Assembly: GCF_043585085.1 (NCBI RefSeq)
Contig: NZ_CP121320.1
Direction: 5' to 3' (one strand)
Source: Hoeflea sp.
Lineage (GTDB): Bacteria; Pseudomonadota; Alphaproteobacteria; Rhizobiales; Rhizobiaceae
Length of the DNA stretch: 64,000 nt
Made by a program: the position numbers and the translations under genes. The notes under the pieces are model-generated. The model had not been told where the DNA came from and searched no databases. It saw only the letters and a list, made by a program, of their open reading frames with translations. Shown piece after piece: positions 16,886-57,169 of the stretch; position 1 is the stretch's first letter, and every line of letters starts with the position of its first letter.

Positions 16886-16904
16886 GAACACGGCTCTTGC
16901 CTGC

Positions 16905-17051: not shown

Positions 17052-17075
17052 GGCATCACGCGCGCTTTGGGCATC

Positions 17076-35445: not shown

Positions 35446-36750
35446 ATGAAAATATCCATCGTTGGCGCCGGATATGTCGGACTGGTTTCCGGCGTCTGCC
35501 TCTCTGCATTCGGACATGATGTTACCTGTATCGACAACTCGTCCGAGAAAATCGATATGCTCAACTCAGGCAAGGTTCCGATCTATGAACCCGGCCTTGA
35601 GGAACTCATGGCAAAAAACGTTGCGCTGGGCAGGCTGCACTTTACCACCGACCTCGCCGCGGCGGTCGCCAGTGCCGATGCCGTTTTCATCGCGGTCGGT
35701 ACGCCCTCGCGCAATGGCGACGGGCATGCGGATCTGCAATATGTTCATGCGGTTGCCGCCGATGTGGCAAAAGCACTGACTGGCTACACGGTGATCATCA
35801 CAAAATCGACCGTGCCGGTGGGAACCGGCGATGAGATCGAGCGGATTGTGCATGAAACCAATCCGAAGGCCGACTGTTCCGTCGTTTCAAATCCCGAGTT
35901 TTTGCGCGAAGGTGCAGCGATCGAGGATTTCCTGGCGCCGGACCGGGTGCTTATTGGCGCGGAAGAACCGCGGGCCATCAAGGTGATGCAGGATATCTAC
36001 CAGTCACTGGATCCGGATCTTCACCCGCTTGTCATCACATCCCGGCGCACCGCGGAGCTGACCAAATACGCCGCCAATGCATTTCTTGCGGTCAAGCTCG
36101 CCTACATCAACGAGATTGCCGATCTGTGCGAACAGGTTGGCGCGGATGTGCAGCATGTCTCGCTGGGGATCGGGCTCGACAGCCGGATTGGCAAAAAGTT
36201 TCTCAATGCAGGCCCGGGCTACGGCGGTTCGTGCTTTCCGAAGGACACATTGGCGCTTCTGCGAACCGCGCAGGACCATGATTCACCGATCCGGGTGATC
36301 GAGACCATTGTCGGGATCAACGAGACGCGCAAACGGGCGATGGCGCGGAAAATCGAACGGGCCATCGGCGGCGAGCTGAGAGGCAAGACGATCGGCATTC
36401 TCGGCCTCACCTTCAAGCCCAACACCGACGACATCCGCGAGTCGCCGGCGCTGACAATCATCCAGGCTCTTCTGGACAAGGGCGCCATGGTCAAGGCCTA
36501 TGACCCAGCGGGGATGGATGCCGCGCGTTCCGCGATGCCCGGGATCGCGTATGCGGAAAGCATCCAGGCTGCAGCCAAGGACAGCGATGCGCTTGTGATC
36601 ATTACCGACTGGGAGGAATTCAAATCGCTTGACTTGAAGGCGCTTCGACCGGTGATGAAGTCACCGGTTCTGGTGGATCTGAGAAACCTTTACAATCCGG
36701 CGCAGGTGCGGGAGTCCGGCTTCGCCTACCACAGCGTCGGCCGCAGTTGA
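35446..36750 (+). CDS. ugd: UDP-glucose 6-dehydrogenase
   Basis: GAGYVGLVSG, IAVGTP, KSTVPVG, SNPEFLREG, GYGGSCFPKD and GLTFKPNTDD. Confidence 0.94.
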   Translation: MKISIVGAGYVGLVSGVCLSAFGHDVTCIDNSSEKIDMLNSGKVPIYEPGLEELMAKNVALGRLHFTTDLAAAVASADAVFIAVGTPSRNGDGHADLQYVHAVAADVAKALTGYTVIITKSTVPVGTGDEIERIVHETNPKADCSVVSNPEFLREGAAIEDFLAPDRVLIGAEEPRAIKVMQDIYQSLDPDLHPLVITSRRTAELTKYAANAFLAVKLAYINEIADLCEQVGADVQHVSLGIGLDSRIGKKFLNAGPGYGGSCFPKDTLALLRTAQDHDSPIRVIETIVGINETRKRAMARKIERAIGGELRGKTIGILGLTFKPNTDDIRESPALTIIQALLDKGAMVKAYDPAGMDAARSAMPGIAYAESIQAAAKDSDALVIITDWEEFKSLDLKALRPVMKSPVLVDLRNLYNPAQVRESGFAYHSVGRS

Positions 36751-36822
36751 ACGGGATCCGCCGGTGCGGAATACTCAACACTCCGACCACGGGTGCTGGT
36801 GCTTGAAAGGATGTGCGCTGGA

Positions 36823-37926
36823 ATGGACATAGCATTTTACGCGCCGTTGAAATCACCAAACCATCCCGTCCCCTCCGGCGACCGGCTGATGGCGCAGATG
36901 CTTGTTGGGGCGCTCCGCCGCAAGGGGCACAAGGTTCGAATCATCAGCGATTTTCGGAGTTTCTCCAAAGATCCCGGGGCCGATGCCTGGAACGCACTTA
37001 CTGCCAATGCTCAGAACGAGGTGACGCGGATCTCGGCGCTTTGGCGCGTGGAGCCTCCGCCCGATCTCTGGTTCTGCTACCACCCCTATTACAAGGCACC
37101 CGATCTGATCGGGCCCCAGCTGGCTGATGACTTTGGCCTGACCTATGTGACGGCGGAGTCCTCATATGCAGGCAAGCGCGATCGCGGACCATGGTCACAA
37201 TGGCAGGCTTGCGTGCGCGCTGGACTTGGGAAGGCCGCAGTCAACATCTGCTTCACTGAGCGGGACCGGTCTGGACTCCATAGCGGGGTTCCCGATGCCC
37301 GTATCGCCATGTTGAAGCCCTTCATTGATACCGAACGGTTCACCAACGGGCCTTCCGGCCAGACAGAGCCCGGCGTGAAGCTGATCAGCGTCGCGATGAT
37401 GCGCGATGGTGACAAGTTCAACAGCTACACCATACTCGCCAGGGCACTGGAGCAGATGCCCGCTGAGCTTCCCTGGTCGCTTCAGGTGATCGGCGACGGC
37501 CCGAAAGCTGACGAGACCAGGCATTTGTTCTCGAACCTGGCTGAAGAGCGGATCGAGTGGCTCGGCGCGAAGTCTGAAGTGGACGTTGCGGAGCTGCTGA
37601 AGGGTGCCTCGATCTATGTCTGGCCCGGATGCGGCGAGGCCTATGGTCTTGCCTATCTGGAAGCACAGGCTGCCGGCCTGCCTGTTGTCGCCCAGAACAT
37701 CGCCGGTGTTCCCGAGGTGGTTGTGGATGGCGTCACCGGGATCCTCACACCGCCCGGAGATATTGGTGCCTACTGTGCCGCGATTGCGCACTTGCTCAGC
37801 GATGATGACAGTCGCAAAACCCTTGGAACCGCGGCCCGGAACTTTGTCCTCAATCAACGCTCGTTTGAACGCGCGGCTGAAACCTTGGACCGAATTCTCA
37901 CCCAAGCTCTGGATCTGAAATCGTGA
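36823..37926 (+). CDS. GT4 family glycosyltransferase
   Basis: FYAPLKSP...SGDR N-terminus; EAYGLAYLEAQAAGLPVV and GVPEVV. Confidence 0.9.
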   Translation: MDIAFYAPLKSPNHPVPSGDRLMAQMLVGALRRKGHKVRIISDFRSFSKDPGADAWNALTANAQNEVTRISALWRVEPPPDLWFCYHPYYKAPDLIGPQLADDFGLTYVTAESSYAGKRDRGPWSQWQACVRAGLGKAAVNICFTERDRSGLHSGVPDARIAMLKPFIDTERFTNGPSGQTEPGVKLISVAMMRDGDKFNSYTILARALEQMPAELPWSLQVIGDGPKADETRHLFSNLAEERIEWLGAKSEVDVAELLKGASIYVWPGCGEAYGLAYLEAQAAGLPVVAQNIAGVPEVVVDGVTGILTPPGDIGAYCAAIAHLLSDDDSRKTLGTAARNFVLNQRSFERAAETLDRILTQALDLKS

Positions 37927-38672
37927 ACAGCAATCAGCCTTGGCGGCTCCTTGATGATGAGCTTGACCGGTGGCAGGCCAACGGCCGCACCGCCAGGTTC
38001 TGGCTGCGCGACGATGATGCCGTTGCGCCGACGGATCTTCTCGAGCAGTTGATCGTCCTCACGGCCTGTCAAACCATCCCCCTGACCCTGGCCGTGATCC
38101 CGCAAGACACCGGTGCAGCCCTTGCCGAGCGGATCACCAGTGCCGACCATGTGTCGGTCGCGGTTCATGGCTGGTCTCACCAGAATCATGCCGGTGAATC
38201 AGAAAAGAAACGGGAACTCGGACTCCACCGCCCCAGGACCATCGTCCTTGATCAGCTCGCAAACGGGTTTGACAAGCTGGCAGGTTTCTACGCAGGGCAG
38301 TTCAACGCCATGCTTGTGCCGCCTTGGAACCGGATCGACGCAGAACTGCTGCCTGAGCTCGCGTCGCTCGGATACCGTGCAGTGTCGGTGTTCGGCGCGG
38401 AGAAACCAGCTCCGATCACAATGATCAACACTCATGTTGATCTGATCGATTGGCATGGCAACCGGGGCGGGAGAGATCCGGAGGTGCTCATTGCCGAGAT
38501 TGTCGCTCGGTTGCGCGTCATGTTTGATCAGGGCGGGCACATGGGGTTCCTTACCCATCACCTGGTGCATGACGACGCTGCATGGAGTTTCCTCGCGTCC
38601 CTGCTGGAGCACACCAATGCCCATCCGGCCTGCCAGTGGGTGGACGCGACTGACTTGTATGGGGTTGCCTGA
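37923..38672 (+). CDS. Polysaccharide deacetylase family protein
   Basis: WLRDDDA, VHGWSHQNH, VPPWNRI and FLTHH NodB-like motifs; GTGA overlap. Confidence 0.85.
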   Translation: MNSNQPWRLLDDELDRWQANGRTARFWLRDDDAVAPTDLLEQLIVLTACQTIPLTLAVIPQDTGAALAERITSADHVSVAVHGWSHQNHAGESEKKRELGLHRPRTIVLDQLANGFDKLAGFYAGQFNAMLVPPWNRIDAELLPELASLGYRAVSVFGAEKPAPITMINTHVDLIDWHGNRGGRDPEVLIAEIVARLRVMFDQGGHMGFLTHHLVHDDAAWSFLASLLEHTNAHPACQWVDATDLYGVA

Positions 38673-38733
38673 AAACCAAGGCTGGATATTGAGCCGAACA
38701 GGACGGATCGCCCAGTGCAGTGATTACGGCTCT

Positions 38734-39567
38734 TCAGATGTCTATTTTTTGACCCTCGAAGGCGCAGAAGGCGCCCGCAAAGCGTTTCGTGGCCAGCTTC
38801 TCCATTTCCAGGAGCTCGGCATCGGTGCGCGTCGGCGAGTGGTGCATGAAACCGACACGCTTGGCTCCCGCGGTTTCGGCAAGTTTGACCGCTTGCTCCC
38901 AGGTGGAATGGCCATAGCCGCGATAGGTCTCCATCTCGTCTTCGAGATAGGTCGTGTCATACAGGAACAGGTCAACATCGCGGATGAGGTCCAAGACAAC
39001 CGGATCCAGCTCACCGGGGGTATGTTCCGTGTCGGTAATCACGGCGATTGATCGCCCACCCCAATCGACCCGATAGCCGATGGCACCGCCGGGATGGACC
39101 AGCGCACCGGTCTTGATGGAAAGGTTTGGAAAGGGCTCAAGCACATCACCAGCCTTGAAATCGACAGTGCTCATGCTGGCTCTGCAAATATCAGGGGCAA
39201 CCGGAAACCAGGGCGGTCGTATGTAGCCGTAAATCATTTCTCTGGTCGTCATCGTGCCGGCCAGGTGCCCCGACCAGAACCCAACCGTGAAGCCAGGCAG
39301 ATACATCGGCTTGAAATGCGGCAGTCCGCAAATATGGTCATAGTGGCAGTGGCTGAAGAACAGATTGAAGTCTTTCACACCTTCGGCAGCAAGCGCTTTT
39401 GCGGCATTTGGCAGGCCAGAGCCCGCATCGAAAATCAGGACATGATCGCCGCAACGCACCTCGATGCAGATCGTGTTGCCGCCGAATTGCCGGAACTCGT
39501 CGCCGCAGACCGACATGGTGCCGCGGGCGCCCCAACACCGAACCTGAAAAAGGGAATCTTCCGACAT
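38734..39567 (-). CDS. MBL-fold metallo-hydrolase
   Basis: WGARG, GGNTICIEV, DAGSG, SHCHYDH, HPGG, TDTEH, GHST and FMHH. Confidence 0.92.
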   Translation of the reverse strand: MSEDSLFQVRCWGARGTMSVCGDEFRQFGGNTICIEVRCGDHVLIFDAGSGLPNAAKALAAEGVKDFNLFFSHCHYDHICGLPHFKPMYLPGFTVGFWSGHLAGTMTTREMIYGYIRPPWFPVAPDICRASMSTVDFKAGDVLEPFPNLSIKTGALVHPGGAIGYRVDWGGRSIAVITDTEHTPGELDPVVLDLIRDVDLFLYDTTYLEDEMETYRGYGHSTWEQAVKLAETAGAKRVGFMHHSPTRTDAELLEMEKLATKRFAGAFCAFEGQKIDI

Positions 39568-39804
39568 TTTTTCTTCGGTCACAAAGCCCCGTTTCTGCGC
39601 CTGAGACAGATCCAATCCGGGAACAGCAGCTGTTCAGACCCGCGTTTTTGCATCTTCCCCTGACCGCTTGCGCATACAGCAATCCGCATTGGCCCAAATG
39701 TAGCCAAACTCATCGTCATATGCGAGGGTTGATTTTTGGTTGATCCTGATCGCTTTTGTTTGGTGCCGGGGCTAAAAACCAATTTGTGCCTGGAACTTCT
39801 TTGT

Positions 39805-41622
39805 ATGTCAGAATCCGATTTACCGTCGATCGCAATTGTCGCCGACGCCCATTTCCACGATCTGCATGCAGATTTCGGGCTGAGCCGGGACGAGGCCCAA
39901 CTGTCGATCCGCCGTTTGGCCGACACGGTCAAATCCACACGCGTGTTCAACGAGAGCGGGTACGCTCTGACCTATGCGCTTGAGGACATCGCCCGGCGTG
40001 GAATCAGGCATGTGGTGCTGCTCGGTGATTATTCCGATGACGGACAGTCTGCCACTCTCAACAGCCTCAGCCGGTTGTTTTCTGACTATGAGCAGCGGTT
40101 CGGAATGCGATTTCATGCGGTTGCCGGCAACCACGACATATTTGCATCCCGCGGACGGCATCGCTCCAAACGCTTCCTGTGCCGCGGCGGCGACTATGTG
40201 CTGTCAACCAGCGACCCGGCGCAATCGGATGCCGACGCGCGGCGAACGGTAGTGACGCCGGCCATGTATTGCCAAGGCTATCCGGCCGGGCTGGAGCCCA
40301 TGCGTCGCAATGGTTTCTTCAGGCGCGGCGACGAGATTTTGTGGGAGACACCCTTTGGTGACAGCGCCAATCCGCTTTCCCGGATCTACAATGCCAGATC
40401 GCCGCACGGTGACGTTACCCATCAGCTCATGGACGCTACCTATCTGGTGGAGCCCCTGCCCGGGCTCTGGATGCTGATGATCGACGCCAATGTGTTTACC
40501 CCACTCAAACCGTCAGGAACCGGCACGGACAGCGAGATCTTCGACGACAGCACCGACGCGGGCTGGAATGCCATGCTTGAGCAGAAGCCGTTCATTCTGG
40601 ACTGGATGAAAGGCGTGGCAGCGCGCGCCGAACAGTCCGGCAAGCGGTTGCTGGCATTTTCGCACTATCCGATGCTAGATCCGCTGCGGGATACCTCCAG
40701 CGACGAGGCAATGCTGGTCGGCGAGACAATGCTGAGCAAGCGCATTCCAAGCGCTGCGGTGGCTGACGCCTTCATCAAGGCGGGCGTCAAAGTCCATTTC
40801 AGCGGTCATCTCCATATCAATGACACCGCCCGGCATGAGAATGCCGAGGGTTTTGTCGTCAATATCGGCGTCCCCTCGCTCGTCGCCTATCCCGGAGCCT
40901 ACAAGACCGTGTCTTTGTCCGGCGAGACCCTTGAGATCGACACGGTGAGCATTGCCGGGTGCGGCCTTGATCCGGCGGTGACACAATCCTACCGGCGGGA
41001 AATCGAAGAAACAGGAGTACCGGCTGAACGGCTGCTGCGGGCCGGAAGCCATGGCGAGTTTCTCTATGAACATCTCGGACATCTCGTTTCACGGCGCCAC
41101 CTGCGCCGGGAATGGCCTCCGGAGCTGGCAACGCTGATCCACAGACTGACGCTTGCCGACGTGGCAGCCATTGCGCTGCTGACGGGGTCGGAGAACGAAC
41201 CGGATCTGGCGAACTTCGGCGAAGTGACGGCCCCCATGCCCGAGTTCAACGCAGATATGGCCACCCGGCTCAAGCGCGTGACCGGACTGCAGCCTGACAC
41301 ACTGGAGGCAATTGGGTTGCTGGATTTTCTTGAGGATTGGTACCGCCTGAAAATGGCGGGCGGGCTTGCGCTCCGGGACATTCCGCCGGAACGGAAGCAG
41401 GTCTATGACGCGCTCATGAAGCTGTTTGACAGTTGCGCCGGTGCGGCAAGACCAAACAGCCTCTCACACTGGTTCAGACTGCTGTTTGCCATCTACAGGA
41501 AATATGATGGCCTGCCATGCGAGCGATTTTCGATATGCCTGCAAACCGGCAGGGTCCTGGCCAGTCCATCTTCAAAAAGGGACAGATACTCTGGAGACAA
41601 CGTCGAAAACCAGTCTATTTAG
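39805..41622 (+). CDS. Calcineurin-like metallophosphoesterase with C-terminal extension
   Basis: ADAHFHD, LGDYSDD, GNHD, FSHYP and FSGHLH motifs. Confidence 0.88.
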   Translation: MSESDLPSIAIVADAHFHDLHADFGLSRDEAQLSIRRLADTVKSTRVFNESGYALTYALEDIARRGIRHVVLLGDYSDDGQSATLNSLSRLFSDYEQRFGMRFHAVAGNHDIFASRGRHRSKRFLCRGGDYVLSTSDPAQSDADARRTVVTPAMYCQGYPAGLEPMRRNGFFRRGDEILWETPFGDSANPLSRIYNARSPHGDVTHQLMDATYLVEPLPGLWMLMIDANVFTPLKPSGTGTDSEIFDDSTDAGWNAMLEQKPFILDWMKGVAARAEQSGKRLLAFSHYPMLDPLRDTSSDEAMLVGETMLSKRIPSAAVADAFIKAGVKVHFSGHLHINDTARHENAEGFVVNIGVPSLVAYPGAYKTVSLSGETLEIDTVSIAGCGLDPAVTQSYRREIEETGVPAERLLRAGSHGEFLYEHLGHLVSRRHLRREWPPELATLIHRLTLADVAAIALLTGSENEPDLANFGEVTAPMPEFNADMATRLKRVTGLQPDTLEAIGLLDFLEDWYRLKMAGGLALRDIPPERKQVYDALMKLFDSCAGAARPNSLSHWFRLLFAIYRKYDGLPCERFSICLQTGRVLASPSSKRDRYSGDNVENQSI

Positions 41623-42085
41623 GCCCCATCTTTGCGAGGCTGCGGGCTTCGGTAAGTTCGGTTGTGGTCTGGCTCAGACGGTCAGCGAGAACCCGCATGA
41701 CCTCGATGGTCATTTCCGGGTAGTCGGTCAGCATCTTGACGAAATCATCCTTGCGGATCCTGAGGGCCTCGATTTCTGTCGTGGCCTTGACCGTGGCTGT
41801 CCTTGAAACATCACACAAGATCGCAATCTCACCGACGAGGGAGTTTTGCGCGACCTCCGCAACCCGGATCTCGGATTTTCCATCCGGTGAATTGACGAGA
41901 ACTTCGGCCTTGCCGGTGAGGATAACATAGGCCGCGTCACCGGGGTCACCCTGATTGAAGAGCACCTCTCCTGCCCGATAGGAAATGCGTTCGGAGGCAA
42001 AAGCGAGCAGTTTCAGCTTGGTCTGATCAATGCCAGCCAAGAGCGGCACACGCCGCAGCATTTGAACCTCATCTTTAAGCAGCAT
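41615..42085 (-). CDS. Stand-alone cyclic nucleotide-binding domain protein
   Basis: LFNQGDPGDAAYVILTG and GEIAIL...RTATV phosphate-binding cassette; 156 aa, no HTH. Confidence 0.93.
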   Translation of the reverse strand: MLLKDEVQMLRRVPLLAGIDQTKLKLLAFASERISYRAGEVLFNQGDPGDAAYVILTGKAEVLVNSPDGKSEIRVAEVAQNSLVGEIAILCDVSRTATVKATTEIEALRIRKDDFVKMLTDYPEMTIEVMRVLADRLSQTTTELTEARSLAKMGPK

Positions 42086-42127: not shown

Positions 42128-44845
42128 CTATCCAGACACCATCTTGTTGAAGACGTCCTTTTCCAGCAGGCTCTCATAAGACCCGTCTTCAGCGATCGCT
42201 CCCCGGTTGAACAGGATGATGCGGTCGAACTCAGATGCCAATCCGGACTGGGCAAGCACCCAGATTACCGTTGGATTCTCGCCGTCGCTTTCCAGCTTCT
42301 TCAGCACCGAACGCCCGATCTGCTCCTGCGTACGTTGATCCAAGCTGGCCAGAGGTCGATTAAAGACATAGTAATCCGACCGCCGCAACAGGACCCGTGC
42401 AAGATTGAGCTTCTGGCGCTGTGCTATCGTCAGGCGCTTGCCTGAGGTTCCGATATCGAAATCAAGCCCGATCGAGAAGACTTCGTCATAAAGACCCAGC
42501 GGCCTGAGAATTTGCATGACGATCATTTTGATCTGTTCTGCACCATCAGCAAACCTGTTGCTCAGGCGGCCAAACAGCACATTGTCCATGATGCTGGCCG
42601 AGGCGATGTAACGGTCGGGATCATAGCGCTCGAACGAGTCGCGCATGTCCTCAGGCATATTGGCGTGGAAATCCTGCCGTGCCGCCACAATGGTTTGCAT
42701 CAGGTCATCGGTGAGAAGACCGAAGCGATGGCGCGGCTCAACATAGGCGAAACTCAGCTTGATGATCCGGCTCTGCTCGTCTGCCGTTGCGTCCTCGAAG
42801 GACTTGCCTTTCAGCTTGTTGAGCAACGCCTGGTAGACCGGGATATCATCCGAGGTCATAAAGGTGAGCTGCTGGAAGAACGGGTGATCCGGCGGCAGGT
42901 CACTGAACAGTTCGATCGCATTCTCGGCAATCTCATAGCCCATCTTGAACAGCGACAGATGAAGCTGGTGACTGGCGATCACCTTTCGGAAATACGGATT
43001 GTTGCCAATCGCACCATCCGCGAAGACCGCGCCCACCGCGTTGCCGAACAGAAGGTTTTCGCCCACTGTCGCCTCGGCATTGTAGGAATCAGGCTCAAAC
43101 GCCACCACCAGATTGGCCAACCCTTCCTTTTCCAGAGCTTCGCGCAAGGCGCCGCGCATGCCGATCAGCCCCTCGGCAAGTTGTTTGTGGTGTTCGGGAT
43201 CAACCTTGGAGCGCAGTGCGAGATCAAGAATATCGGTGGAAAGCTGGACCGTCTCCAGCACTGCCCCGATTGGTCCGGCCAGATCATCGGGACCGGTGGC
43301 GCTTGCCGATTGATAATCGATCCAGTCACTGGCGACGTCGTGGTCCGGATTGCCCGACAGCTTTGCCTCTTCGACATGCCAGTTGCGGTCTTTCAATTGC
43401 CTCTCATCATACTCGGCGGGCCGCACCGGAGCATGCTTCAGACCATAAAGGAGGTTCTCCCTCAGCGCTCCGGAGAAGAAATACGGATCGGACGCGACAT
43501 AGGAAATCGACCTTCCGGTTACGGCTTCGGGCAGTTCGAGAATATCGCTTTCACCTACGGTGATGCGTCCGCTTTCCGGCCAGACGATGCGGCCAAGCGC
43601 CTCGGCAAATGCTTCTCCACCATCGGCCGCATTGCCCAGGATGGCGATTTTCTCACCCTTCTGGACCTGGAGGTTGATCCTCTCGATGAGCTTGGCACCG
43701 CTGTCATCGGCAACAGTCAGGTTCACGGCGGCCAAAGGATAACTGACGATGCCCTCGGGCACCTTGTCTGACACGGTCTGAATCGATGAATCGATCATGT
43801 TATCGACAGTGAACTGGTCAACGACCTGGGTGTATTTGACCTGCACGTCCTGTCTGGTCTGATCCCAGTCAATCAGTTCCTTGAGTGGGCCCGGGAGATC
43901 CTTGTAGGCCGCGATCACGGCCACGAGCTGCCCAATATCCAACTGTCCGTTCAAGGCGAGATAACCACCAACAATGTAGAACAGGAAAGGTGTTACCGAA
44001 GCGAGGAAATTGTTGATGAATTTGACCAGAAACTTCCACTGGTACAAATCATACCGAATGCGGAAAATGCGCCCCAGCCGTGAAGCAACATCTGCCCGCT
44101 CATAATTGGACGTATCAAAGGCATGAATCGCGTGGATGCCTTCAACGATTTCACTGACCCGGCCTGAAAGCTGGCGTGCGGTCAGCTGGCGCTCGCGCCC
44201 CAGAACAAGCAAACGCTTGCGCATTTTGGGAATAAGCACTGCCTGGATGGTCACCATGAACGCGGTGATAAAGCCAAGCCACATGTTTTGCGTGAAGATG
44301 AAGGCGAGTGCCGTCAGCGCCTGCCCACCCAGCAAGGCCGGCTGCACGAAGGCATCGCCGGTAAACCCGCCGATCGGCTCGACCTCATCCTTGACCATGC
44401 TGGCGATTTCGGCAGGCTTGACCTGCTTGAACATGCGCGGCGGGAACCGCAGCACCCGGTCAACCAGCTCAAACCTTATCCGGCGCAGCAGGCGCTCGCC
44501 CAGCCTGCCCTTGTAGGTATTGATGTAAAGCTTGAACAAGCCGTTGATGATGACCAGCATCAGGAAGGACAGGCTCAAGGCATAAAGCGTGTTCAGCCGG
44601 TCCAGATCCATACCGGGCAAAAGCACTGTTTCCCCGAGCACAGGCAGATCCATCGCGATCCGGCCGAACAACTGCGTAGCGTCTGCCGATTCAAACCCGC
44701 CACCCTGGATCGGGCCGTTGACGATCCGCTTAGGGACGTCGAACGACAAGAAATAGGGAATCATCGACAATGCGATGACCAGCAGAATCCACAGCTGCTG
44801 CTTTTTGGTATGGGTCCAGATGTATCGGGAAAGTCGTGTTTCCAT
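42128..44845 (-). CDS. ABC exporter-like TMD-NBD fusion with degenerate NBD and large insertion
   Basis: N-terminal type IV ABC TMD helices; NBD scaffold recognisable but Walker A GNAADGGE, signature LTIAQ and Walker B YYVFNR. Confidence 0.88.
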   Translation of the reverse strand: METRLSRYIWTHTKKQQLWILLVIALSMIPYFLSFDVPKRIVNGPIQGGGFESADATQLFGRIAMDLPVLGETVLLPGMDLDRLNTLYALSLSFLMLVIINGLFKLYINTYKGRLGERLLRRIRFELVDRVLRFPPRMFKQVKPAEIASMVKDEVEPIGGFTGDAFVQPALLGGQALTALAFIFTQNMWLGFITAFMVTIQAVLIPKMRKRLLVLGRERQLTARQLSGRVSEIVEGIHAIHAFDTSNYERADVASRLGRIFRIRYDLYQWKFLVKFINNFLASVTPFLFYIVGGYLALNGQLDIGQLVAVIAAYKDLPGPLKELIDWDQTRQDVQVKYTQVVDQFTVDNMIDSSIQTVSDKVPEGIVSYPLAAVNLTVADDSGAKLIERINLQVQKGEKIAILGNAADGGEAFAEALGRIVWPESGRITVGESDILELPEAVTGRSISYVASDPYFFSGALRENLLYGLKHAPVRPAEYDERQLKDRNWHVEEAKLSGNPDHDVASDWIDYQSASATGPDDLAGPIGAVLETVQLSTDILDLALRSKVDPEHHKQLAEGLIGMRGALREALEKEGLANLVVAFEPDSYNAEATVGENLLFGNAVGAVFADGAIGNNPYFRKVIASHQLHLSLFKMGYEIAENAIELFSDLPPDHPFFQQLTFMTSDDIPVYQALLNKLKGKSFEDATADEQSRIIKLSFAYVEPRHRFGLLTDDLMQTIVAARQDFHANMPEDMRDSFERYDPDRYIASASIMDNVLFGRLSNRFADGAEQIKMIVMQILRPLGLYDEVFSIGLDFDIGTSGKRLTIAQRQKLNLARVLLRRSDYYVFNRPLASLDQRTQEQIGRSVLKKLESDGENPTVIWVLAQSGLASEFDRIILFNRGAIAEDGSYESLLEKDVFNKMVSG

Positions 44846-44852
44846 AAAGACT

Positions 44853-45410
44853 TCAGCTGCTCACATGGATGGATTCCAGAACATGGAATCGGCGTTCGGC
44901 GAATGGCGTGTTTACGATCTCGGGATCAAAAAGACGAAGTTCTATCATGCACAAGGTTCTCAGGACCGGTCTCTCCAAAATTGCTGGCACCTGGGACAAA
45001 GCACGTTCCAAGCCGGGAGTGTAGTCGACAATAACCGTCTTTGCATTGTCTATTAGCGAAAAAAGTACATCGCCCAGAGGGTTGCGGCTGCCGAACGGCT
45101 TGAGCGAATAGCCAAGCAGGACAAGTCCATAGGATTGCGGGGCAAACTCAAACTCGACCTCCTGAAACTTGCGCGCGATATGGCGAACGCGACACGGCTT
45201 TCCGTTGAGTTCGGAGGCCTCAAGGGGCGTTGTCTTCGGGTCGACGGAAGTCACCGAGCGGGGATGGTGGGTCAGGAAAGATGTGATCGGCCGTTCGTGC
45301 CCGCCAATCTCGACAACATGCTCGCAATCGCGCAAATAATGCGCTGCCAGCACTTGGCGTGCATCCGATCCGGCTCCGCTGAGATGAGGGATTGTCCCTT
45401 GGTGATGCAT
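44853..45410 (-). CDS. Hypothetical protein with SAM-methyltransferase-like Rossmann motifs
   Basis: VVEIGG motif I and VTSVDP motif II; stop lies 7 nt before the ABC start. Confidence 0.7.
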   Translation of the reverse strand: MHHQGTIPHLSGAGSDARQVLAAHYLRDCEHVVEIGGHERPITSFLTHHPRSVTSVDPKTTPLEASELNGKPCRVRHIARKFQEVEFEFAPQSYGLVLLGYSLKPFGSRNPLGDVLFSLIDNAKTVIVDYTPGLERALSQVPAILERPVLRTLCMIELRLFDPEIVNTPFAERRFHVLESIHVSS

Positions 45411-45447
45411 GGCTTGCGCTCCAATCGAAAGAGACTACAACACACCA

Positions 45448-46125
45448 ATGATGAACACTACCCGCCCCGGCGAACCGACCGAAAAAGACTGGCATGACAC
45501 CGCATTCGACCTGACAAGGGGGGTGGCTGCCTATACGGGGAGCCCGCTGATTGCAGGCATTGCCAATGTGATCGGGAAACATCCGGACGCCGACATCGGC
45601 AATGCATTCAACCACAAACAGGTGGCCTCGAAGATCTGGGCCCGCCAGATGCTGTTTGAATCGCTCGGCCCTGTCTATCGCAACATCCTTGTTGTCGGCG
45701 GCTGGTACGGCATCCTGTCAGGCATGCTGTTTGATGATGACCGTTTCGAGATTGGCCACATCGTCAGCAGCGACATCGACCCCGACGTGGCAATCGTCGC
45801 CAAGGCCCTGAACCGGGCTTCTTCGGACCGGTTCGAGGCCATTACCGCAGACATGTATGACATGGACTATGCCGCGCTTGGGGCCGATCTGGTGATCAAC
45901 ACAAGCTGTGAGCACATTGCGGACCTTCGGGCCTGGCTTGCGCTTTTGCCGGGCGGGACCCGGGTATTGTTGCAATCCAACGATTATTTTTCCGAGCCGA
46001 CCCACATCAGCTGCGTGCCCGATCTCGATGCCTTCCGGGCGCAGGCCGGGCTGAGAAATGAGGTGTTCGGCGGCGGGCTGAAAACCAAGAACTACACCCG
46101 CTTCATGCTGATCGGCTCGGTTTAA
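45448..46125 (+). CDS. Class I SAM-dependent methyltransferase
   Basis: ILVVGGWYG, SSDIDP, ADMYD and LVINTSCEH. Confidence 0.85.
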   Translation: MMNTTRPGEPTEKDWHDTAFDLTRGVAAYTGSPLIAGIANVIGKHPDADIGNAFNHKQVASKIWARQMLFESLGPVYRNILVVGGWYGILSGMLFDDDRFEIGHIVSSDIDPDVAIVAKALNRASSDRFEAITADMYDMDYAALGADLVINTSCEHIADLRAWLALLPGGTRVLLQSNDYFSEPTHISCVPDLDAFRAQAGLRNEVFGGGLKTKNYTRFMLIGSV

Positions 46126-47270
46126 AGCTGATCAACCAGACCACCTGGACCCAATATGGCTGCGGTCCTGCTGGCGCCGCCAAGGTCGATCCCGTGGCCT
46201 TTGGGTTTGGAGAGAGCAAGCGCATGCGTGATCTCGTCAGCCAGCCTGTCCGCATCCAGATCCGTTTCATGGATTGATCGGGCAAGCCCTCTCAGAACCA
46301 GACGGTCGGCCCGGACCTGCTGTTCGGTCTCGCCGCCGGAGGTAAAGGGCACCACCACAGACCGGCACCCTGCCTCAAGAACATCACCGACCGTATTGTA
46401 GCCCGCCTGTGAGACCGAGAGCTCTGCCGCTTTCAACAGATCGCGAAAATCCTCGCGAAACCTGTGCAGCTCCACATTGGAGCCCAGGCTCTGGACAATC
46501 CGGTCGTAGTCAAGCTGGGGCATGTTGGGCCCTGCGATGAGGCACCAACGCAAGGACTGCGGCAGGCGTTGTGCCGCACCGGTGGCCGCCTCAACGAGAT
46601 TGGCGCCCACCGCGCCTCCCCCGGCTGACACCACAATATCAAAGATGTCTGTCTTGCCAGCCTGCGTCTTCGGTGCGGCAACCAAGCCGGTGTAGATGAT
46701 CTTGTCCTGGATTGCTCCGGCAAGCGGGAATGTCTCGTCGAGGCGAACGAAATCCGGGTGGCCGTGAACCAGAACCCCGTCAAACCACGTGTTGAGAAGC
46801 GCCACGCTCTCCTCGTCCCGCCCCGGTTTGGCGCGGGCCTGCAGGATATCGCGCACGGACGAATACACACGCGGGCGCGGTTTGGTGGCGTGGATGGCCT
46901 TAAGAAACGGCAGCAGTTCGAACCGCATCTGCCTTCGTCCAAAGGGGAACGCCTCGATCAGGACAATGTCGGGTTTGAGCGTTGCGAGCGTATCGAGCAG
47001 CTTTGCCCGACGTTGGTCCTTGAAGGCCTCATCCACCGGATTTCCGTGCATGTCGGCCAATCCGGAAAAGCCCGCGTCGGCAGAAACCACCGGCGGCAAG
47101 GCAACATGGCGGACAGTGGCCGGAGGAAATCCCTTCACCGGCAAACCGCCGGTCACCATTGTGACATCATAGCCATCCTGAACCAGAGCCTGCGAAATGC
47201 GGCTCGCCCGCGCCAGATGACCGATTCCGAGCAAGTGCTGGACATAGAACAGCACCGATTGCCCGGTCAT
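46122..47270 (-). CDS. Predicted glycosyltransferase (GT-B, COG4671-like)
   Basis: YVQHLLGIGHLAR, IEAFPFGRR, VSAGGGAVG and SQAGYNT. Confidence 0.88.
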   Translation of the reverse strand: MTGQSVLFYVQHLLGIGHLARASRISQALVQDGYDVTMVTGGLPVKGFPPATVRHVALPPVVSADAGFSGLADMHGNPVDEAFKDQRRAKLLDTLATLKPDIVLIEAFPFGRRQMRFELLPFLKAIHATKPRPRVYSSVRDILQARAKPGRDEESVALLNTWFDGVLVHGHPDFVRLDETFPLAGAIQDKIIYTGLVAAPKTQAGKTDIFDIVVSAGGGAVGANLVEAATGAAQRLPQSLRWCLIAGPNMPQLDYDRIVQSLGSNVELHRFREDFRDLLKAAELSVSQAGYNTVGDVLEAGCRSVVVPFTSGGETEQQVRADRLVLRGLARSIHETDLDADRLADEITHALALSKPKGHGIDLGGASRTAAILGPGGLVDQL

Positions 47271-48505
47271 CGCTGCTTACTCCAGGCGCCGGTGAAAAGC
47301 TGCTTGAGCTGAGCGATGCTCGAATGATGATCGAACTGCGACCTGACCCGGGCCTCGACGGCATCACCCAATCGATGCCGCAAGACCGGATCGGTTATGG
47401 CCGTCTCGATGAGAGCGGCAAAGGCATCAGCATCTTCGGGTGGGCAGAGCAGACCGGTCTCATTGTGCGTGATCAGCTCGGGAATGCCTGAGATTTCGGT
47501 GGAAACTGTGGTCAATCGCTGGCTCGAGGCCTCCACGATAACGTTTGGAAGCCCGTCGCGGTCTCCATCCGCAGTGATCCGGCAGGCGAGTGCGAAGAGA
47601 TCCGAGCGCTGATACTCGGCCAGCACCTCTGTCTGATCGAGGGCGCCACGCCATTCGATCCGATCTTCAAGGCCGAGTTCCTTTGCCAGAGATTGCAGCT
47701 CGGGCAGTTTCTCGCCGCCGCCAATATGGGTGAACTTCCAATGCAGGGATGCGGGCAACCGGCTCAGTGCTTTGAGAAGGATGTCGTAGCCCTTCTTCTC
47801 GACGGCCCGGCCGACACTGACAATGCGAACAGGATCTTCAGGATCGGACCCGTCGCGTGCAGACTTTTCTCCATCAAATCTGGAGAAGCGATCGAGATCA
47901 AGCCCGTGATAGCTCAGATGAACCTCGCCCTTGGCCGCGGCCAACTTCTGGAGGTGCACAAAACCGCTCCGGGTGCAGGTGACGGTCCAGGCTGCAGCCT
48001 GCAGCTTTTGGCGCAGTTCCCAATCATCGGAGGTCCAGATATCCTTGGCATGCGCCGAGCAACTCCAGCCAATCGAGAGCATCTGGCTGGCATAGGACGC
48101 GACCGAGGCAGGCGTGTGAATGAAATGGCTGTGAAGCCAGCCCGCATCCTTCGGCCATTCGGCGCAAAGCACTGCGGCCTGACCAAAGCGGCGGACACGG
48201 TTGCGGGTGAAATCCTTGCCGAGATCCCGCACCAGCGTCGCCACAGCGCGCCAGAAACCCGGTTTGGCCAAACCTGAAAACACGGCCTTGAGAACCCTGC
48301 CGGGCTCTTCATGGAGATATTCAGGAAGGTAGAAGACCGGCGCCTTGATCTCGTCATTGACCGGATGGCGCTTCTTGTCGGTCGGATGGCGCAACGCCAC
48401 CAGAACCAGATCAAAACCGGCACGCTCCAATCCGAGAATTTCCTGGGCGATGAAGGTTTCCGACAGACGCGGATAGCCCTTCAAAACGATAACTGTTTTG
48501 CGCAT
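47267..48505 (-). CDS. GT4 family glycosyltransferase
   Basis: KGYPRLSETFI, VGRAVEKKG and DGDRDGLPNVIVEA. Confidence 0.92.
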   Translation of the reverse strand: MRKTVIVLKGYPRLSETFIAQEILGLERAGFDLVLVALRHPTDKKRHPVNDEIKAPVFYLPEYLHEEPGRVLKAVFSGLAKPGFWRAVATLVRDLGKDFTRNRVRRFGQAAVLCAEWPKDAGWLHSHFIHTPASVASYASQMLSIGWSCSAHAKDIWTSDDWELRQKLQAAAWTVTCTRSGFVHLQKLAAAKGEVHLSYHGLDLDRFSRFDGEKSARDGSDPEDPVRIVSVGRAVEKKGYDILLKALSRLPASLHWKFTHIGGGEKLPELQSLAKELGLEDRIEWRGALDQTEVLAEYQRSDLFALACRITADGDRDGLPNVIVEASSQRLTTVSTEISGIPELITHNETGLLCPPEDADAFAALIETAITDPVLRHRLGDAVEARVRSQFDHHSSIAQLKQLFTGAWSKQR

Positions 48506-48521
48506 TTCGATCAAACCAGGC

Positions 48522-49730
48522 TCAACTCTTGACAACGCTCAAGCGGCCCGGCTCGGCAGCCGTCATCCATTTTCCAACAATTTCGGAAATGTGTGGAAGT
48601 CCTTCAAGGCGCAATCCGCCCGCTTCGGCGGATGGAGGTGCACGACCGGGCAACGCTTTGAGCGCATCGGCCATGCGCAGCGGCTCAGCGGCTTCTTCAG
48701 GCAACAACATATCGATCAGGCCCAGCTCTGCGGCACGACGGGCGCGGATCAACTGCTCTTCGCGCGGTTTGACGCGCGGAACAATCAGCGCCGGCTTGTC
48801 GAATGACAGAATTTCGCAATAGGTGTTGTAGCCGCCCATGGCGACCACGCCCTTAGCACCTGCTATCAGATCTTCCATGCGGTTGTCGAACTCGATGATC
48901 TCCAAATAGGGGATCTTGCCGCCTTTGCGCTTGAGCTTCCGGCGTTGCTTTGCAGGCATGTAGGGACCCAGCACCACCAGCGCCTTGCAAGTGAGGGTCG
49001 GATCCTGCTGGTAGGCATGAATGACATCGTGAACAAGATCTGCGCCATCACCGCCGCCACCGGTGGTGACGAGAATATAATCCCCTCTTGGCTGGCGATC
49101 AGAATCCTTGTCGCGGGAGGCCCGGCGCTGCAGAAAGCCGACAAAATCCATCTTTGAACGAATGGTGTCGGGCACATCGAGGCCGACAAGCGGATCATAG
49201 AAATCCGGTGGCCCGTACACCCAGATCCGGTCATACAGGCGATCAATCTTCTCCATCACCCCTTTGGCTTTCCACTCCGCATCCAGCAGATGCGGCGCGT
49301 CCATGACTTCGCGCAGGCCAAGCACCAGACGTGTTCCGCGGGTCTTGAGATAGGCAAGCGTATCCTCCACCTCCCCCTTCAGACCAAGGGGCTCCTTGTC
49401 GACGATAAAGATGTCCGGTTTGAAGGTCTCAGCCGTATGGCGGATGATCGAGGTTCGCATTTCAAGCGTGTCGTGCAGATCAATGTGCCGATCGAGCGAG
49501 GTGTATTCGCCATTTCTGAGCTTGATGACACTTGGGATTTTGACGAAATCCACGCGCGCGCGATAGTCAAAGGCACCGGCGATGGTTGCACCGGAGATAA
49601 TGAGAATATTGAGGCCGCGGTAATCCTCGACAAGCGAGTGCGCGATTGTCCGGCAGCGCCGCAAATGCCCCAGGCCAAACGTATCGTGGCTGTACATTAG
49701 AATGCGGGCGTCTTCAAAGCGCTCGATCAT
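48522..49730 (-). CDS. Predicted glycosyltransferase (GT-B, COG4671-like)
   Basis: YSHDTFGLGHLRR, VTTGGGGDG and AMGGYNTYCE. Confidence 0.9.
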   Translation of the reverse strand: MIERFEDARILMYSHDTFGLGHLRRCRTIAHSLVEDYRGLNILIISGATIAGAFDYRARVDFVKIPSVIKLRNGEYTSLDRHIDLHDTLEMRTSIIRHTAETFKPDIFIVDKEPLGLKGEVEDTLAYLKTRGTRLVLGLREVMDAPHLLDAEWKAKGVMEKIDRLYDRIWVYGPPDFYDPLVGLDVPDTIRSKMDFVGFLQRRASRDKDSDRQPRGDYILVTTGGGGDGADLVHDVIHAYQQDPTLTCKALVVLGPYMPAKQRRKLKRKGGKIPYLEIIEFDNRMEDLIAGAKGVVAMGGYNTYCEILSFDKPALIVPRVKPREEQLIRARRAAELGLIDMLLPEEAAEPLRMADALKALPGRAPPSAEAGGLRLEGLPHISEIVGKWMTAAEPGRLSVVKS

Positions 49731-49890
49731 GATTGAAGCCTCGCATCTCCAAATTACAATCCCGGAGCGGCATGAAATCCTCTTGAGCGAGGGACAACAA
49801 AACAAACCTCCAGGTCACGGCTCAAATGCCGTCTGCCTGTTCAAATTATTTGTGAACACTTGTGTCCACTGATCGCATGCCAGAATGCCT

Positions 49891-51783
49891 TCAAACCCGC
49901 AACTCCCGGGCATCGACATTCTTGCGCGCGAGCACCAAATGTCCGTCTCCGAGATCCTTGGCCTGCAACTGTTCATCAGCATCAGAGGCAACAAACATGT
50001 TGCCCCAATTGCTGGTGTCGGACGCTCCGCTGGAGCGCAGCGTGGCAAAATCGAGCGGACGGTCAAGATCCGGAAACGGAACCGCCGCCAACAGAGATTT
50101 TGTATAGGGATGAACCGGGGACCGCATCAACGTGGTCCGCGGCGCCAGTTCAACAATCCGGCCCCCGCACATGACGGCAATACGGTCGGCCATGTAATCG
50201 ACGACGGCGAGATTGTGCGAAATGAACAGATATGTCAGCCCCAGATCCTTTTGAAGGTCCTTCAAGAGGTTGAGAATCTGGGCCTGAACCGACACATCAA
50301 GCGCCGAGACGGGCTCATCGCAGATCAACAGGTCCGGCCCCAGAGCCAGCGCCCTGGCGATCCCGATGCGCTGGCGCTGACCGCCGGAAAAGCTGTGCGG
50401 GTAGCGATTGAGAAAGCGCTTGTCCAACCCGATCGCTTCCATCAGCTTGGCCACGGTCTCAAGCCGCGAGGCCGGGGTGCCGCGCTGATGGATTTCCAAT
50501 GGCTCGAGCAGGATGTTCTGGATTGTCATTCGCGGCGAAAGCGAAGATACCGGATCCTGAAAAACCATCTGGACGCTGGTACGCAAATCCCGCAGTTGCT
50601 GCTCGGAAGCCCCCAGCACGTCAATCTCGCCACCGCGCCCATGGTACATGACGGAGCCCGAATCCGGTGTTACCGCGCGCATCAATATTTTGCTGACGGT
50701 GGTCTTGCCGCAGCCGCTTTCACCCACAAGTCCGAGGCATTCGCCGCGTTTGATGTCAAAGCTCACACCATCGACCGCGCGCACCGATGCGGACTCCTCC
50801 CTCGCAAACATTCCGGATTTGCGAGTGCTGTAGGATTTGACGACATCGCGAACCGTGAGCACCACGTCTGATGCATTGTCGCTCGAAACGGCTTGCTTGC
50901 CCAGAAGGCGTCCGGCGTTAACCGGGATTTCCCGCAAGGCCTTGAGACGTTGACCGGTCTTCATATCAAAGTGCGGCACTGCTGCCATCAAGCCCTTGAG
51001 ATAGGCATGGCCGGGGCGCCGAAAGATGGGCTCAACCTCGCCCGCCTCCATGATCTGCCCGTGGTAGATCACAACCACCTCATCGGCGATGTTGGCGACC
51101 ACACCGAGGTCGTGGGTGATCAGCAGCATCGCCATATTGAACTTCGACTGCAGTTCCAGCAGCAGCTCCAGGATCTGGGCCTGAATGGTAACATCGAGCG
51201 CTGTTGTCGGCTCATCCGCGATCAACAGCGCCGGCCTGCAGACCAATGCCATGGCGATCATTGCGCGCTGACGCATCCCACCGGACAGCTCAAACGGATA
51301 CATATCGAAGGCCCGGCGCGGATTGGGGAACCCAACGAGCCCAAGCATTTCCTCGCTGCGATCGCGCCGTTCGGCTTTGGTCATATTGATGTGGATGCGC
51401 AGGGTTTCGCTGATCTGGTCGCCGATCGTGTGCAGCGGTGACAGGGAGGTCATCGGCTCCTGGAAAATCTTGCCGATGCGCGCGCCACGCAAGGCCCGGA
51501 TTTGCGGACCGTCCTTAGGGAGCGAATTTATGTCGATCGGTTCGGCATCCGTCTCCGGATCGTTGAACAGGATTTTGCCTGTTGCTGCCGCGGTTTTCGG
51601 AAGAATGCCCATCACGGACTGGCTGATGACCGATTTGCCGGATCCCGACTCCCCGACGAGGGCTGTGACCTTTCCCGGCAGCACCCTGAGACTTGCGTCC
51701 TTGACGGCGTCAAGCTGTCCGCCAAGAAGCGAAAATGAAATCCTGAGGTTCTCGATGCGCAGAAGGTCGGAACCTGAAGACAT
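49891..51783 (-). CDS. Fused double ATPase of a Dpp/Opp-type ABC importer
   Basis: GESGSGKS/LSGGMRQR/IADEPT and GESGCGKT/FSGGQRQR/ICDEPV, all intact. Confidence 0.95.
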   Translation of the reverse strand: MSSGSDLLRIENLRISFSLLGGQLDAVKDASLRVLPGKVTALVGESGSGKSVISQSVMGILPKTAAATGKILFNDPETDAEPIDINSLPKDGPQIRALRGARIGKIFQEPMTSLSPLHTIGDQISETLRIHINMTKAERRDRSEEMLGLVGFPNPRRAFDMYPFELSGGMRQRAMIAMALVCRPALLIADEPTTALDVTIQAQILELLLELQSKFNMAMLLITHDLGVVANIADEVVVIYHGQIMEAGEVEPIFRRPGHAYLKGLMAAVPHFDMKTGQRLKALREIPVNAGRLLGKQAVSSDNASDVVLTVRDVVKSYSTRKSGMFAREESASVRAVDGVSFDIKRGECLGLVGESGCGKTTVSKILMRAVTPDSGSVMYHGRGGEIDVLGASEQQLRDLRTSVQMVFQDPVSSLSPRMTIQNILLEPLEIHQRGTPASRLETVAKLMEAIGLDKRFLNRYPHSFSGGQRQRIGIARALALGPDLLICDEPVSALDVSVQAQILNLLKDLQKDLGLTYLFISHNLAVVDYMADRIAVMCGGRIVELAPRTTLMRSPVHPYTKSLLAAVPFPDLDRPLDFATLRSSGASDTSNWGNMFVASDADEQLQAKDLGDGHLVLARKNVDARELRV

Positions 51784-52910: not shown

Positions 52911-53011
52911 GTTGTCTCCGATTTTTTCATCAGGATCAGATATACTTAGATGGCAGATTGCAAAGTTATCTGTTGCCGTCAAGAACAGTCAGCAATTTCA
53001 ACCAAAAGGTT

Positions 53012-57148: not shown

Positions 57149-57169
57149 AGACTATGATCAAGTGGGACC

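Follow-up and report, generated by a model that had tools for sequence, protein, structure and literature searches.

A conserved ABC-exporter-fold protein without the canonical ATPase motifs and its cyclic-nucleotide-binding partner in Hoeflea sp.

Background

ABC exporters are defined by ATP-driven alternating access, and their coupling helices and transmembrane helix 6 (TM6) linker elements transmit movements of the nucleotide-binding domains (NBDs) to the transmembrane domain (TMD). Several type-IV half-transporter exporters move lipids, lipid-linked glycans or glucans. This report concerns an ABC-exporter-like gene in a 64,000-nucleotide stretch of Hoeflea sp. (assembly GCF_043585085.1, contig NZ_CP121320.1), hereafter the window. 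Its product shares the TMD and NBD folds, the coupling helices and the domain order of MsbA, Sav1866, PCAT1, PglK and NdvA/ChvA, but it is without the ATP motifs, carries an NBD insert of about 270 residues with a triplicated module, and has an obligatory partner that is a cyclic-nucleotide (cNMP)-binding (CNB) protein.

Non-catalytic and regulatory NBD sites are known from TM287/288, TmrAB, LmrCD, TAP1/2 and CFTR/SUR. CFTR is an exporter fold turned into a gated conduit under cAMP control, with cAMP sensed indirectly through phosphorylation by protein kinase A (PKA). The heterodimers with one degenerate site and CFTR/SUR retain a consensus site and still bind ATP at the other; in the present protein, by contrast, each site is degenerate on either face, a partner half-transporter is not encoded, and the predicted cNMP receptor is a direct subunit or domain. 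PelD, BcsA-PilZ and Alg44 likewise combine a membrane component of a glycan pathway with a second-messenger receptor, and the GGDEF domain of fused relatives of the present protein is degenerate in the PelD manner; here, in contrast, the messenger would be a cyclic mononucleotide and its receptor a CAP-type domain, with an ABC exporter fold as the membrane body in place of a synthase or a PelD-type protein. A CNB-like domain is also carried by HetC of Nostoc (PMC10986499) and by the NHLM exporters (TIGR03796/03797). These have the CNB-like domain at the N-terminus, a C39 peptidase and a canonical ATPase, unlike the present protein, in which neither an N-terminal CNB domain nor a C39 peptidase was found and which scores 124 bits with TIGR03796 against a cut-off of 853.

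The closest described genes are SMb21269 of Sinorhizobium meliloti and pRL110047 of Rhizobium johnstonii, which are 60-63% identical to the present gene and share with it the degenerate motifs, the CNB neighbour and an island that corresponds gene by gene. The family is listed in three genetic screens. In the parts of the papers covered, the two genes are named simply as ABC exporter or permease and associated with a fitness phenotype, their CNB neighbours are labelled Crp/Fnr, and the text holds no discussion of a dead ATPase, an NBD insert or a cNMP partner. No description of the dead ATPase, the insert or cNMP coupling was found in the searchable literature.

Loss of the ATP-handling motifs

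The initial annotation, made from the sequence alone, had described an uninterrupted 905-residue open reading frame (ORF) with degenerate ATPase motifs. The frame is continuous over 905 codons and lies on the minus strand; the plus-strand reading of 42128-44845 was ruled out because of its many stops. Every quoted motif is present, with its coordinates verified by translation and its register by HMMER alignment to ABCB4 and other solved exporters. The gene and its motifs are as follows.

42128..44845, minus strand: ABC-exporter-like pseudo-ATPase gene, 905 aa, orthologue of S. meliloti SMb21269 and R. johnstonii pRL110047
43613-43636, minus strand: Walker-A-like GNAADGGE, residues 404-411, aligned with GSSGCGKS
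43487-43501, minus strand: Q-loop-like YVASD (vaSdp), residues 449-453, aligned with vsQEP
42419-42433, minus strand: signature-like LTIAQ, residues 805-809, aligned with LSGGQ
42356-42373, minus strand: Walker-B-like YYVFNR, residues 825-830, aligned with ILLLDE
42338-42349, minus strand: D-loop ASLD, in the C-terminal part of the NBD
42248-42262, minus strand: switch WVLAQ (vlaQs), residues 862-866, aligned with iaHR

The loss is even stronger than first described, as the A-loop aromatic residue is also gone (V378 stands opposite the Tyr of FSYPSR in the HMMER alignment). All six ATP-contacting motifs that make up a functional ATPase (A-loop aromatic, Walker A, Q-loop Gln, LSGGQ signature, Walker B Asp-Glu and switch His) are replaced, and the NBD is predicted to be no longer able to bind or hydrolyse ATP in the canonical way.

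Conservation and selection

Close homologues were collected by a word-indexed search as proteins of about 900 aa with 61-85% identity, from Rhizobium, Sinorhizobium, Pararhizobium, Phyllobacterium, Mesorhizobium, Hartmannibacter and Rhodobacterales, and 120 of them were aligned. The Walker A Lys position is occupied by Gly (83) or Ala (37), the following residue is Glu (84) or Asp (36), and the Q-loop Gln position holds Ser or Ala. Asn replaces the Walker B Asp in 119 of the 120 and Arg the catalytic Glu in 112; the switch His is kept in a single homologue, and the A-loop aromatic in none, the position being Leu, Val or Ile throughout. The replacement residues are themselves fixed, and so are R804, Q809, R810, K812, D836, W862 and V863. 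The ratio of non-synonymous to synonymous substitution (dN/dS), taken as the median over 25 sampled gene pairs with 80-93% protein identity, was 0.056 for the TMD, 0.125 for the N-terminal part of the NBD, 0.128 for the insert and 0.069 for the C-terminal part of the NBD. Purifying selection, which the initial annotation had named as a check, is thus seen in every domain, and its proposal of a pseudo-ATPase is borne out in a form that is conserved, the same replacements being fixed in 120 homologues, rather than locally decayed.

With one genome scanned per species, relatives were found in at least 510 species, the nearest (80% identity) being in an uncultured Hoeflea, and they also occur in 258 plasmid records, mostly megaplasmids of Rhizobium and Sinorhizobium. 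A HMMER search over 1.84 billion cluster representatives returned 729 matches at E<=1e-30; the best 150 of these are mostly full length with the insert, at identities down to 30%. Among 128 full-length representatives of this deep family, the Walker A position is Lys in 38, Arg in 40 and Ala or Gly in 33, and the Walker B Asp position is Asn in 61 and Asp in 41. LSGGQ occurs in none of the 128, nor does the combination of Lys, Asp-Glu and His; at most four of seven canonical features are retained, and Walker A Lys-Ser/Thr together with Walker B Asp-Glu in just three. Homologues with canonical motifs, which would have pointed to local decay, were accordingly absent from the close family, and the full set was absent from the deep one. 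Judged from these alignments, the loss is graded within a wholly non-canonical family, and the alphaproteobacterial clade with the present gene stands at its most degenerate extreme.

Domain architecture

The protein is divided as follows.

43811..44845, minus strand: type-IV exporter TMD, residues 1-345, supported by PF00664, predicted helices, invariant columns and the lowest dN/dS
Residues 134-169, in the TMD: intracellular loop 1, near-invariant FPP..EVEPxGGFxGDAFVxP, of which EVEPxGGFxGDAFVxP comes after coupling helix 1
Residues 238-252, in the TMD: coupling helix 2, near-invariant AFDTSNYERAD
Residues 313-329, in the TMD: TM6-NBD linker motif AYKDLPGPLKELIDWDQ
43433..43750, minus strand: N-terminal part of the NBD, residues 366-471, with V378, GNAADGGE and YVASD; module copy 1 is residues 446-470
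42611..43432, minus strand: NBD insert of about 270 aa, residues 472-745, mostly helical and confidently folded
42932..43117, minus strand: module copy 2, residues 577-638 (FEPDSYNAEATVGENLLFG...), a repeat of the Q-loop strand and the start of the helical subdomain
42131..42610, minus strand: C-terminal part of the NBD, residues 746-905, with LTIAQ, YYVFNR, ASLD and WVLAQ; module copy 3 begins at residue 735

PF00664 covers residues 85-312 with 88.1 bits (cut-off 28), and PF00005 matches residues 388-486 only, the N-terminal part of the NBD, with 33.4 bits. The NCBIfam exporter models match two stretches, about 82-472 and 742-897, with every score far under its cut-off; no curated exporter equivalog (MsbA, CydDC, HlyB, NdvA, bacteriocin ABC) was reached, the best being MsbA with 150.9 bits against 602. 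Pfam, NCBIfam and PDB alignments over 388-486 and 742-897 identify a C-terminal NBD of the ABC fold, with a RecA-like core and a helical subdomain. As the NBD matches are split in two, the domain is interrupted by about 270 residues, an insert on which the initial annotation was silent.

An AlphaFold2 (AF2) model computed with the 120-sequence alignment (predicted local distance difference test, pLDDT, 82.4; predicted template modelling score, pTM, 0.76) has six long transmembrane helices, as in the type-IV exporter TMD, a first outer loop that is small and beta-rich, and an NBD whose insert is folded with confidence. Foldseek placed the model with probability 1.0 beside PCAT1, TmrAB, Sav1866, MsbA and P-glycoprotein. 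The PF00664 match, the six helices and the Foldseek result agree with the intact TMD noted at the outset. Only two segments of the model are of low confidence, residues 155-172 and 318-332, and both fall on top-conserved motifs, EVEPxGGFxGDAF(VxP) and KDLPGPLKELIDWDQ; low confidence exactly at invariant motifs suggests interfaces that need a partner or a dimer to fold. The TMD, both coupling helices, the X-loop glycines and the D-loop Asp are near-invariant, and the TMD helices hold many invariant polar and charged residues. As the transmission elements are conserved, we argue that the protein is still an allosteric machine.

Within the NBD, residues 577-638 of the insert align with residues 735-795 (blastp self-match E 3e-5; hhalign probability 98.8%, E 1e-16). 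The first Q-loop region, residues 446-470, matches both other copies (94% and 88%), so that the module xxYxxxxxxx[ED]N[LV]L[FY]G occurs three times. Folded on its own, the insert reached a pLDDT of 87.7; it gave no significant PDB fold match (best E 0.62) and no PDB sequence match, only designed repeat proteins appearing at E~0.35. By these sequence and model comparisons the protein belongs structurally to the type-IV ABC exporter superfamily and functionally fails its defining ATPase motifs, and it is most simply read as a half-transporter of that fold acting as a homodimer.

Cyclic-nucleotide-binding partner

Three genes of the window bear on the cNMP connection.

41615..42085, minus strand: stand-alone CNB protein, 156 aa, 42 nt downstream of the ABC-like gene; orthologue of SMb21270 and pRL110046
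55542..56912, plus strand: class III nucleotidyl cyclase, a weak match (32.7 bits); cyclases adjoin the pair in relatives
39736..41622, plus strand: 628-aa calcineurin-like metallophosphoesterase, present in 25 of 77 related loci; candidate phosphodiesterase

PF00027 covers residues 34-121 of the CNB protein with 78.7 bits, and no other domain was found. The phosphate-binding cassette (G-E...R-[TA]-A) is intact, GEIAILCDVSRTATV aligning with GEIALLMNRPRAATV of PKA RI-alpha, and the protein looks competent as a predicted cyclic-nucleotide receptor. It has no C-terminal helix-turn-helix DNA-binding domain: the match to the Crp profile covers positions 14-138 of 214, with 51 bits against a cut-off of 266. 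Seventy-seven related loci offered 20 kb of sequence or more, and in every one of them the CNB gene follows the ABC-like gene on the same strand at a distance below 300 nt. Protein lengths in the deep family are bimodal, and a C-terminal PF00027 domain was present in nine of nine long representatives tested; overall, CNB is fused to the C-terminus in 41 of 127 full-length deep representatives. By the gene-fusion argument, this adjacency and fusion indicate that the ABC-like and CNB proteins function together as a unit. In a further lineage a GGDEF domain is present as well; it lacks GG[DE]EF in 39 of 39 cases and is therefore taken as a receptor-type rather than a catalytic domain. The use of a degenerate GGDEF domain as a receptor is known from PelD.

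Class III cyclases, DUF3095 and phosphodiesterase-fold genes recur beside the ABC-like/CNB pair, and all are present in the window. The gene at 55542-56912 is the only class III cyclase among the ORFs scanned in the window and is the likely local source of cNMP. The ORF at 54266-55441 on the minus strand was rejected as a cyclase; it encodes an NAD-dependent epimerase/dehydratase (PF01370, 172 bits).

Public records and papers annotate the CNB partner as a 'Crp/Fnr family transcriptional regulator' (41615-42085 in the window, 16809-17273 in the related locus L089, and pRL110046) despite its length of about 155 aa, and one paper speculates on its regulon from that annotation. This name, and 'ABC transporter ATP-binding protein' for the present protein, are probably wrong; hundreds of database entries carry the two names.

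Orthologous island and reported phenotypes

The island around the gene was compared with pSymB of S. meliloti by tblastn of the window proteins on 818-848 kb, SMb tags being assigned through the coordinates in the table of PMC10128002. The matches are one-to-one with 46-81% identity and lie at the coordinates of that table, so the orthology and synteny hold across the cluster. Products and their orthologues are listed below, with identities in brackets.

ABC-like protein: SMb21269 (60-63% over the full length)
CNB protein: gene next to SMb21269, 844532-844981 (69%)
46122..49805, minus strand: three soluble glycosyltransferases (GTs), namely the GT28_C-type GT28_a, SMb21266 (57%), the GT4-type GT1, SMb21265 redB (66%), and the GT28_C-type GT28_b, SMb21264 redA (79%)
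51924..52982, minus strand: PF14099 polysaccharide-lyase-like protein with a Sec signal peptide, SMb21259 (65%)
33675..39615: further orthologues of the cluster, namely a nucleotide-sugar dehydrogenase, SMb21256 (58%), a GT4, SMb21252 (55%), and a deacetylase-like protein, SMb21253 (46%)

Travin et al. (mBio 2023, PMC10128002) report nine genes in smb21252-smb21271 on which a provisionally proposed 'phazolicin-protecting polysaccharide' (PPP) depends. Data Set S1 lists SMb21269 as 'PPP-biosynthesis; ABC exporter' at pSymB 842345-844435, with log2 fold changes (log2FC) of -4.77, -5.38 and -4.03 under phazolicin in transposon sequencing (Tn-seq); the other eight genes are SMb21252, 21253, 21256, 21259, 21264, 21265, 21266 and 21271. 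The depletion of SMb21269 is similar to that of SMb21252, 21253, 21256 and 21259 and of the GT genes SMb21264, 21265 and 21266. The adenylate cyclase gene cyaA was strongly depleted as well, and in the same data set both synthesis and removal of cyclic nucleotide seem relevant. The secreted PF14099 protein SMb21259 is also required for protection (log2FC about -4.6). Such a requirement is odd for a degradative enzyme, which may instead process or mature the glycan.

The orthologue in R. johnstonii 3841 has 904 aa, 61% identity and the same motifs, and its adjacent CNB protein is 63% identical. Insertion sequencing (INSeq; preprint 10.1101/2020.05.07.082560) identified pRL110047 ('permease of ABC exporter') as a gene needed in pea nodules, and a second R. 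leguminosarum/johnstonii 3841 study reports that root attachment requires pRL110046, named there as a regulator of the 'FNR/CRP family'; the old pRL locus tags were mapped by gene adjacency and descriptions. Phenotypes and orthology together indicate that the gene is functional and in the same pathway as the GTs.

In the record of strain 1021, the S. meliloti orthologue aligns in two pieces (pSymB 841723-844435), and SMb21269 is annotated from 842345, about 200 N-terminal residues short; it is a single piece in strain 2011 and most others. Either a frameshift or sequence error in the record or a shortened annotation would account for this. Insertions in SMb21269 as annotated in 1021 still give a strong phenotype. 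A paper on the Clr regulon was set aside as not relevant, because it concerns another pSymB cluster, nodP2-smb21248.

Composition of the island

The window encodes two nucleotide-sugar dehydrogenases, an epimerase, a further GT4, a deacetylase-like protein and the lyase-like protein. All GTs of the island are without transmembrane segments, and the ABC-like protein is the sole polytopic membrane protein of the island apart from the importer permeases; domain scans of the island proteins found no Wzx, Wzy, OPX or priming transferase. The three GTs are present in 75 of the 77 loci and the importer in 54-67, a count limited by the 10-kb flanks of the loci. The GT/importer set also recurs beside fused relatives that are just about 35% identical. 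The remaining genes of this set and its surroundings are as follows.

49891..51783, minus strand: fused double-NBD ATPase of an Opp/Dpp-type importer
53012..54163, minus strand: DUF3095 protein, recurring beside relatives
57158..61250, plus strand: family-5 substrate-binding protein (SBP) with a Tat-type signal and two importer permeases
Within 33675..39615: second UDP-Glc dehydrogenase and a metallo-beta-lactamase-fold hydrolase

The importer SBP is nearest by sequence to SPH1118, the pectin-oligosaccharide binder of Sphingomonas A1, and is also close to alpha-galactoside and chitin-oligosaccharide binders; its cargo is probably an oligosaccharide, not a peptide.

The initial annotation had also noted that no partner half-transporter is encoded here, and this holds beyond the window: no second PF00664 gene was found within 10 kb on either side in 10 relatives with gene calls. 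In the complete genome to which the gene belongs (4.5 Mb), there is a single member of the family, and the other ABC exporters are at most 22% identical and more than 1 Mb distant. The arrangement of a heterodimeric exporter, with an adjacent partner and one consensus composite site, was thus not found.

Discussion

We favour, with a probability of about 0.5, the reading that the ABC-like protein translocates an envelope glycan, or gates its passage, without hydrolysing ATP and under the control of cNMP, its NBD-like dimer being controlled by the CNB partner and cAMP or cGMP. The role proposed in the initial annotation, a sensor, scaffold or ligand-gated channel, is thereby narrowed to that of a protein obligately coupled to the CNB protein and needed, by the genetics of its S. 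meliloti orthologue, in an envelope-glycan pathway, and a gated translocator is favoured over a pure sensor because the protein is the sole candidate outward translocator in the island. In the proposed mechanism, it would be the outward translocation step, or the gate of that step, for a glycan or glyco-conjugate made by the soluble cytoplasmic GTs. The product would move down its own gradient or be pulled by downstream periplasmic steps, so that no ATP hydrolysis would be needed. The CNB partner, with cAMP or cGMP supplied by the class III cyclase nearby, would control the opening and closing of the NBD-like dimer, whose state would be relayed to the TMD through the conserved coupling helices; the enlarged insert with its triplicated module is the likely docking platform for CNB. 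The periplasmic lyase-like enzyme may then process the product and the oligosaccharide-type importer recapture it.

Several points weigh against this reading. The GT/importer set is not nearby in two of six distant relatives sampled, and the three of 128 deep relatives that retain the Walker A Lys and the Walker B Asp-Glu imply that ATP binding may matter in parts of the family. In PMC10128002, PPP itself is a provisional inference and the authors explain the cyaA effect by transcriptional control; the CNB gene SMb21270 has no entry in the portion of Data Set S1 covered. A Tn-seq phenotype, moreover, shows that a gene is needed and is not proof of transport; a scaffold or activator of the GTs would match it.

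Such a scaffold is the content of an alternative in which the exporter fold is a membrane anchor and allosteric body that recruits or activates the soluble GTs on cNMP, in the manner of PelD and in the GGDEF-fused lineage on cyclic di-GMP too, while translocation is carried out by machinery encoded elsewhere. Receptor-type domains do accumulate in the family (CNB, and the degenerate GGDEF in 39 of 39 triple fusions), soluble GTs would need a membrane platform, some relatives adjoin only a cyclase, DUF3095 and CNB with no GTs nearby, and the Tn-seq phenotype, being equal to that of the GTs, fits a scaffold as well as a translocator. However, the TMD is the most constrained part of the protein (dN/dS 0.056), with many invariant polar and charged helix residues, and both coupling helices are near-invariant, beyond the needs of an anchor; the island has no other exporter, while its periplasmic lyase-like enzyme and SBP importer imply a periplasmic product. 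We hold a pure scaffold to be possible but rather doubtful. An exporter still powered by nucleoside triphosphate (NTP) seems unlikely, whether as a heterodimer with a canonical half encoded elsewhere or through nucleotide bound by non-canonical NBD residues. Heterodimers with one degenerate site are common (TM287/288, TmrAB, LmrCD), the genome encodes other ABC exporters, and 78 of the 128 deep relatives have Lys or Arg in Walker A, some also keeping acidic residues in Walker B; but neither site of a head-to-tail heterodimer would be canonical, one face of the present protein having lost the P-loop, Walker B and switch and the opposite face the signature. Nor was an adjacent partner gene present in any of the 10 loci with gene calls, and of the other exporters in the genome, all more than 1 Mb off, two are encoded side by side as a pair of their own. 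Not one of the 120 close homologues keeps the A-loop aromatic, the Lys or the Ser/Thr, and the Asp or Glu in place of Ser/Thr would repel phosphate.

Two further readings can be given little weight. The protein might be a regulatory subunit of the co-encoded Opp-type importer, as SUR is for Kir6, in which case cNMP would control uptake and not export; the co-occurrence of the importer in 54-67 of 77 loci and in distant lineages fits this, but some relatives have no importer nearby, the importer of the window is split and on the other strand, and in the portion of the phazolicin table covered the nine genes include the ABC-like gene and no importer gene. We regard this as highly improbable. The chance that the gene is merely a dying, functionless ABC exporter is negligible: every catalytic motif is lost, as decay would have it, yet the 905-codon frame is intact, dN/dS is 0.06-0.13, identical replacements recur in 120 homologues and relatives in at least 510 species, and strong Tn-seq/INSeq phenotypes are on record in two species.

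Should the gated-translocator reading be right, a second messenger can take over the powering or gating of an ABC exporter scaffold, and the protein is a direct post-translational target of cAMP/cGMP in alphaproteobacteria. These bacteria encode dozens of cyclases, and few effectors are known. We suggest, tentatively and as less probable than not, that the family is a new functional class of the ABC fold: an ATP-independent conduit or flippase in which cNMP, acting through a CAP-type subunit or domain on a triplicated helical-subdomain insert, would replace ATP as the ligand gating the NBD dimer, a bacterial, direct-binding counterpart of CFTR that may release an envelope glycan relevant to antimicrobial-peptide tolerance and legume symbiosis. 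The family is in any case large and conserved (at least 510 species, several hundred clusters at 50% identity), with ATP-handling motifs gone, the transmission interface kept and a tie to a cNMP receptor. The orthologues in S. meliloti and R. leguminosarum, with phenotypes in phazolicin tolerance, nodule fitness and root attachment, make the mechanism tractable, and both a candidate for the export step and a regulatory input can now be named for the PPP glycan.

Other features of the neighbourhood

Curated NCBIfam names were obtained for none of the neighbouring genes, GT28_b gave no PDB sequence match, and promoter and terminator scans were at chance level. Two genes lie upstream of the ABC-like gene.

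44853..45410, minus strand: 185-aa ORF (orf185), 7 nt upstream of the ABC-like gene, without a family match and found in 17 of 77 loci
45409..46125, plus strand: divergent 238-aa S-adenosylmethionine (SAM)-methyltransferase-like gene, 63% identical to the neighbour in S. sojae and 62% to that in S. meliloti (annotated as a class I SAM methyltransferase)

The former is probably the first gene of an orf185/ABC-like/CNB unit, and the latter is kept in about 20 of 77 related loci. The two are divergent and their annotated starts abut, which leaves no room for a promoter, so at least one true start is probably further in. The importer is split in the window, its fused ATPase heading the GT operon and the SBP and permeases lying 5.4 kb off on the other strand; in most relatives all four importer genes are contiguous. 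In Rhodospirillales-type relatives, the GT set adds a His_Phos_1 phosphatase and a fourth GT, which hints at a sugar-phosphate intermediate and a small glycoside rather than a long polymer.

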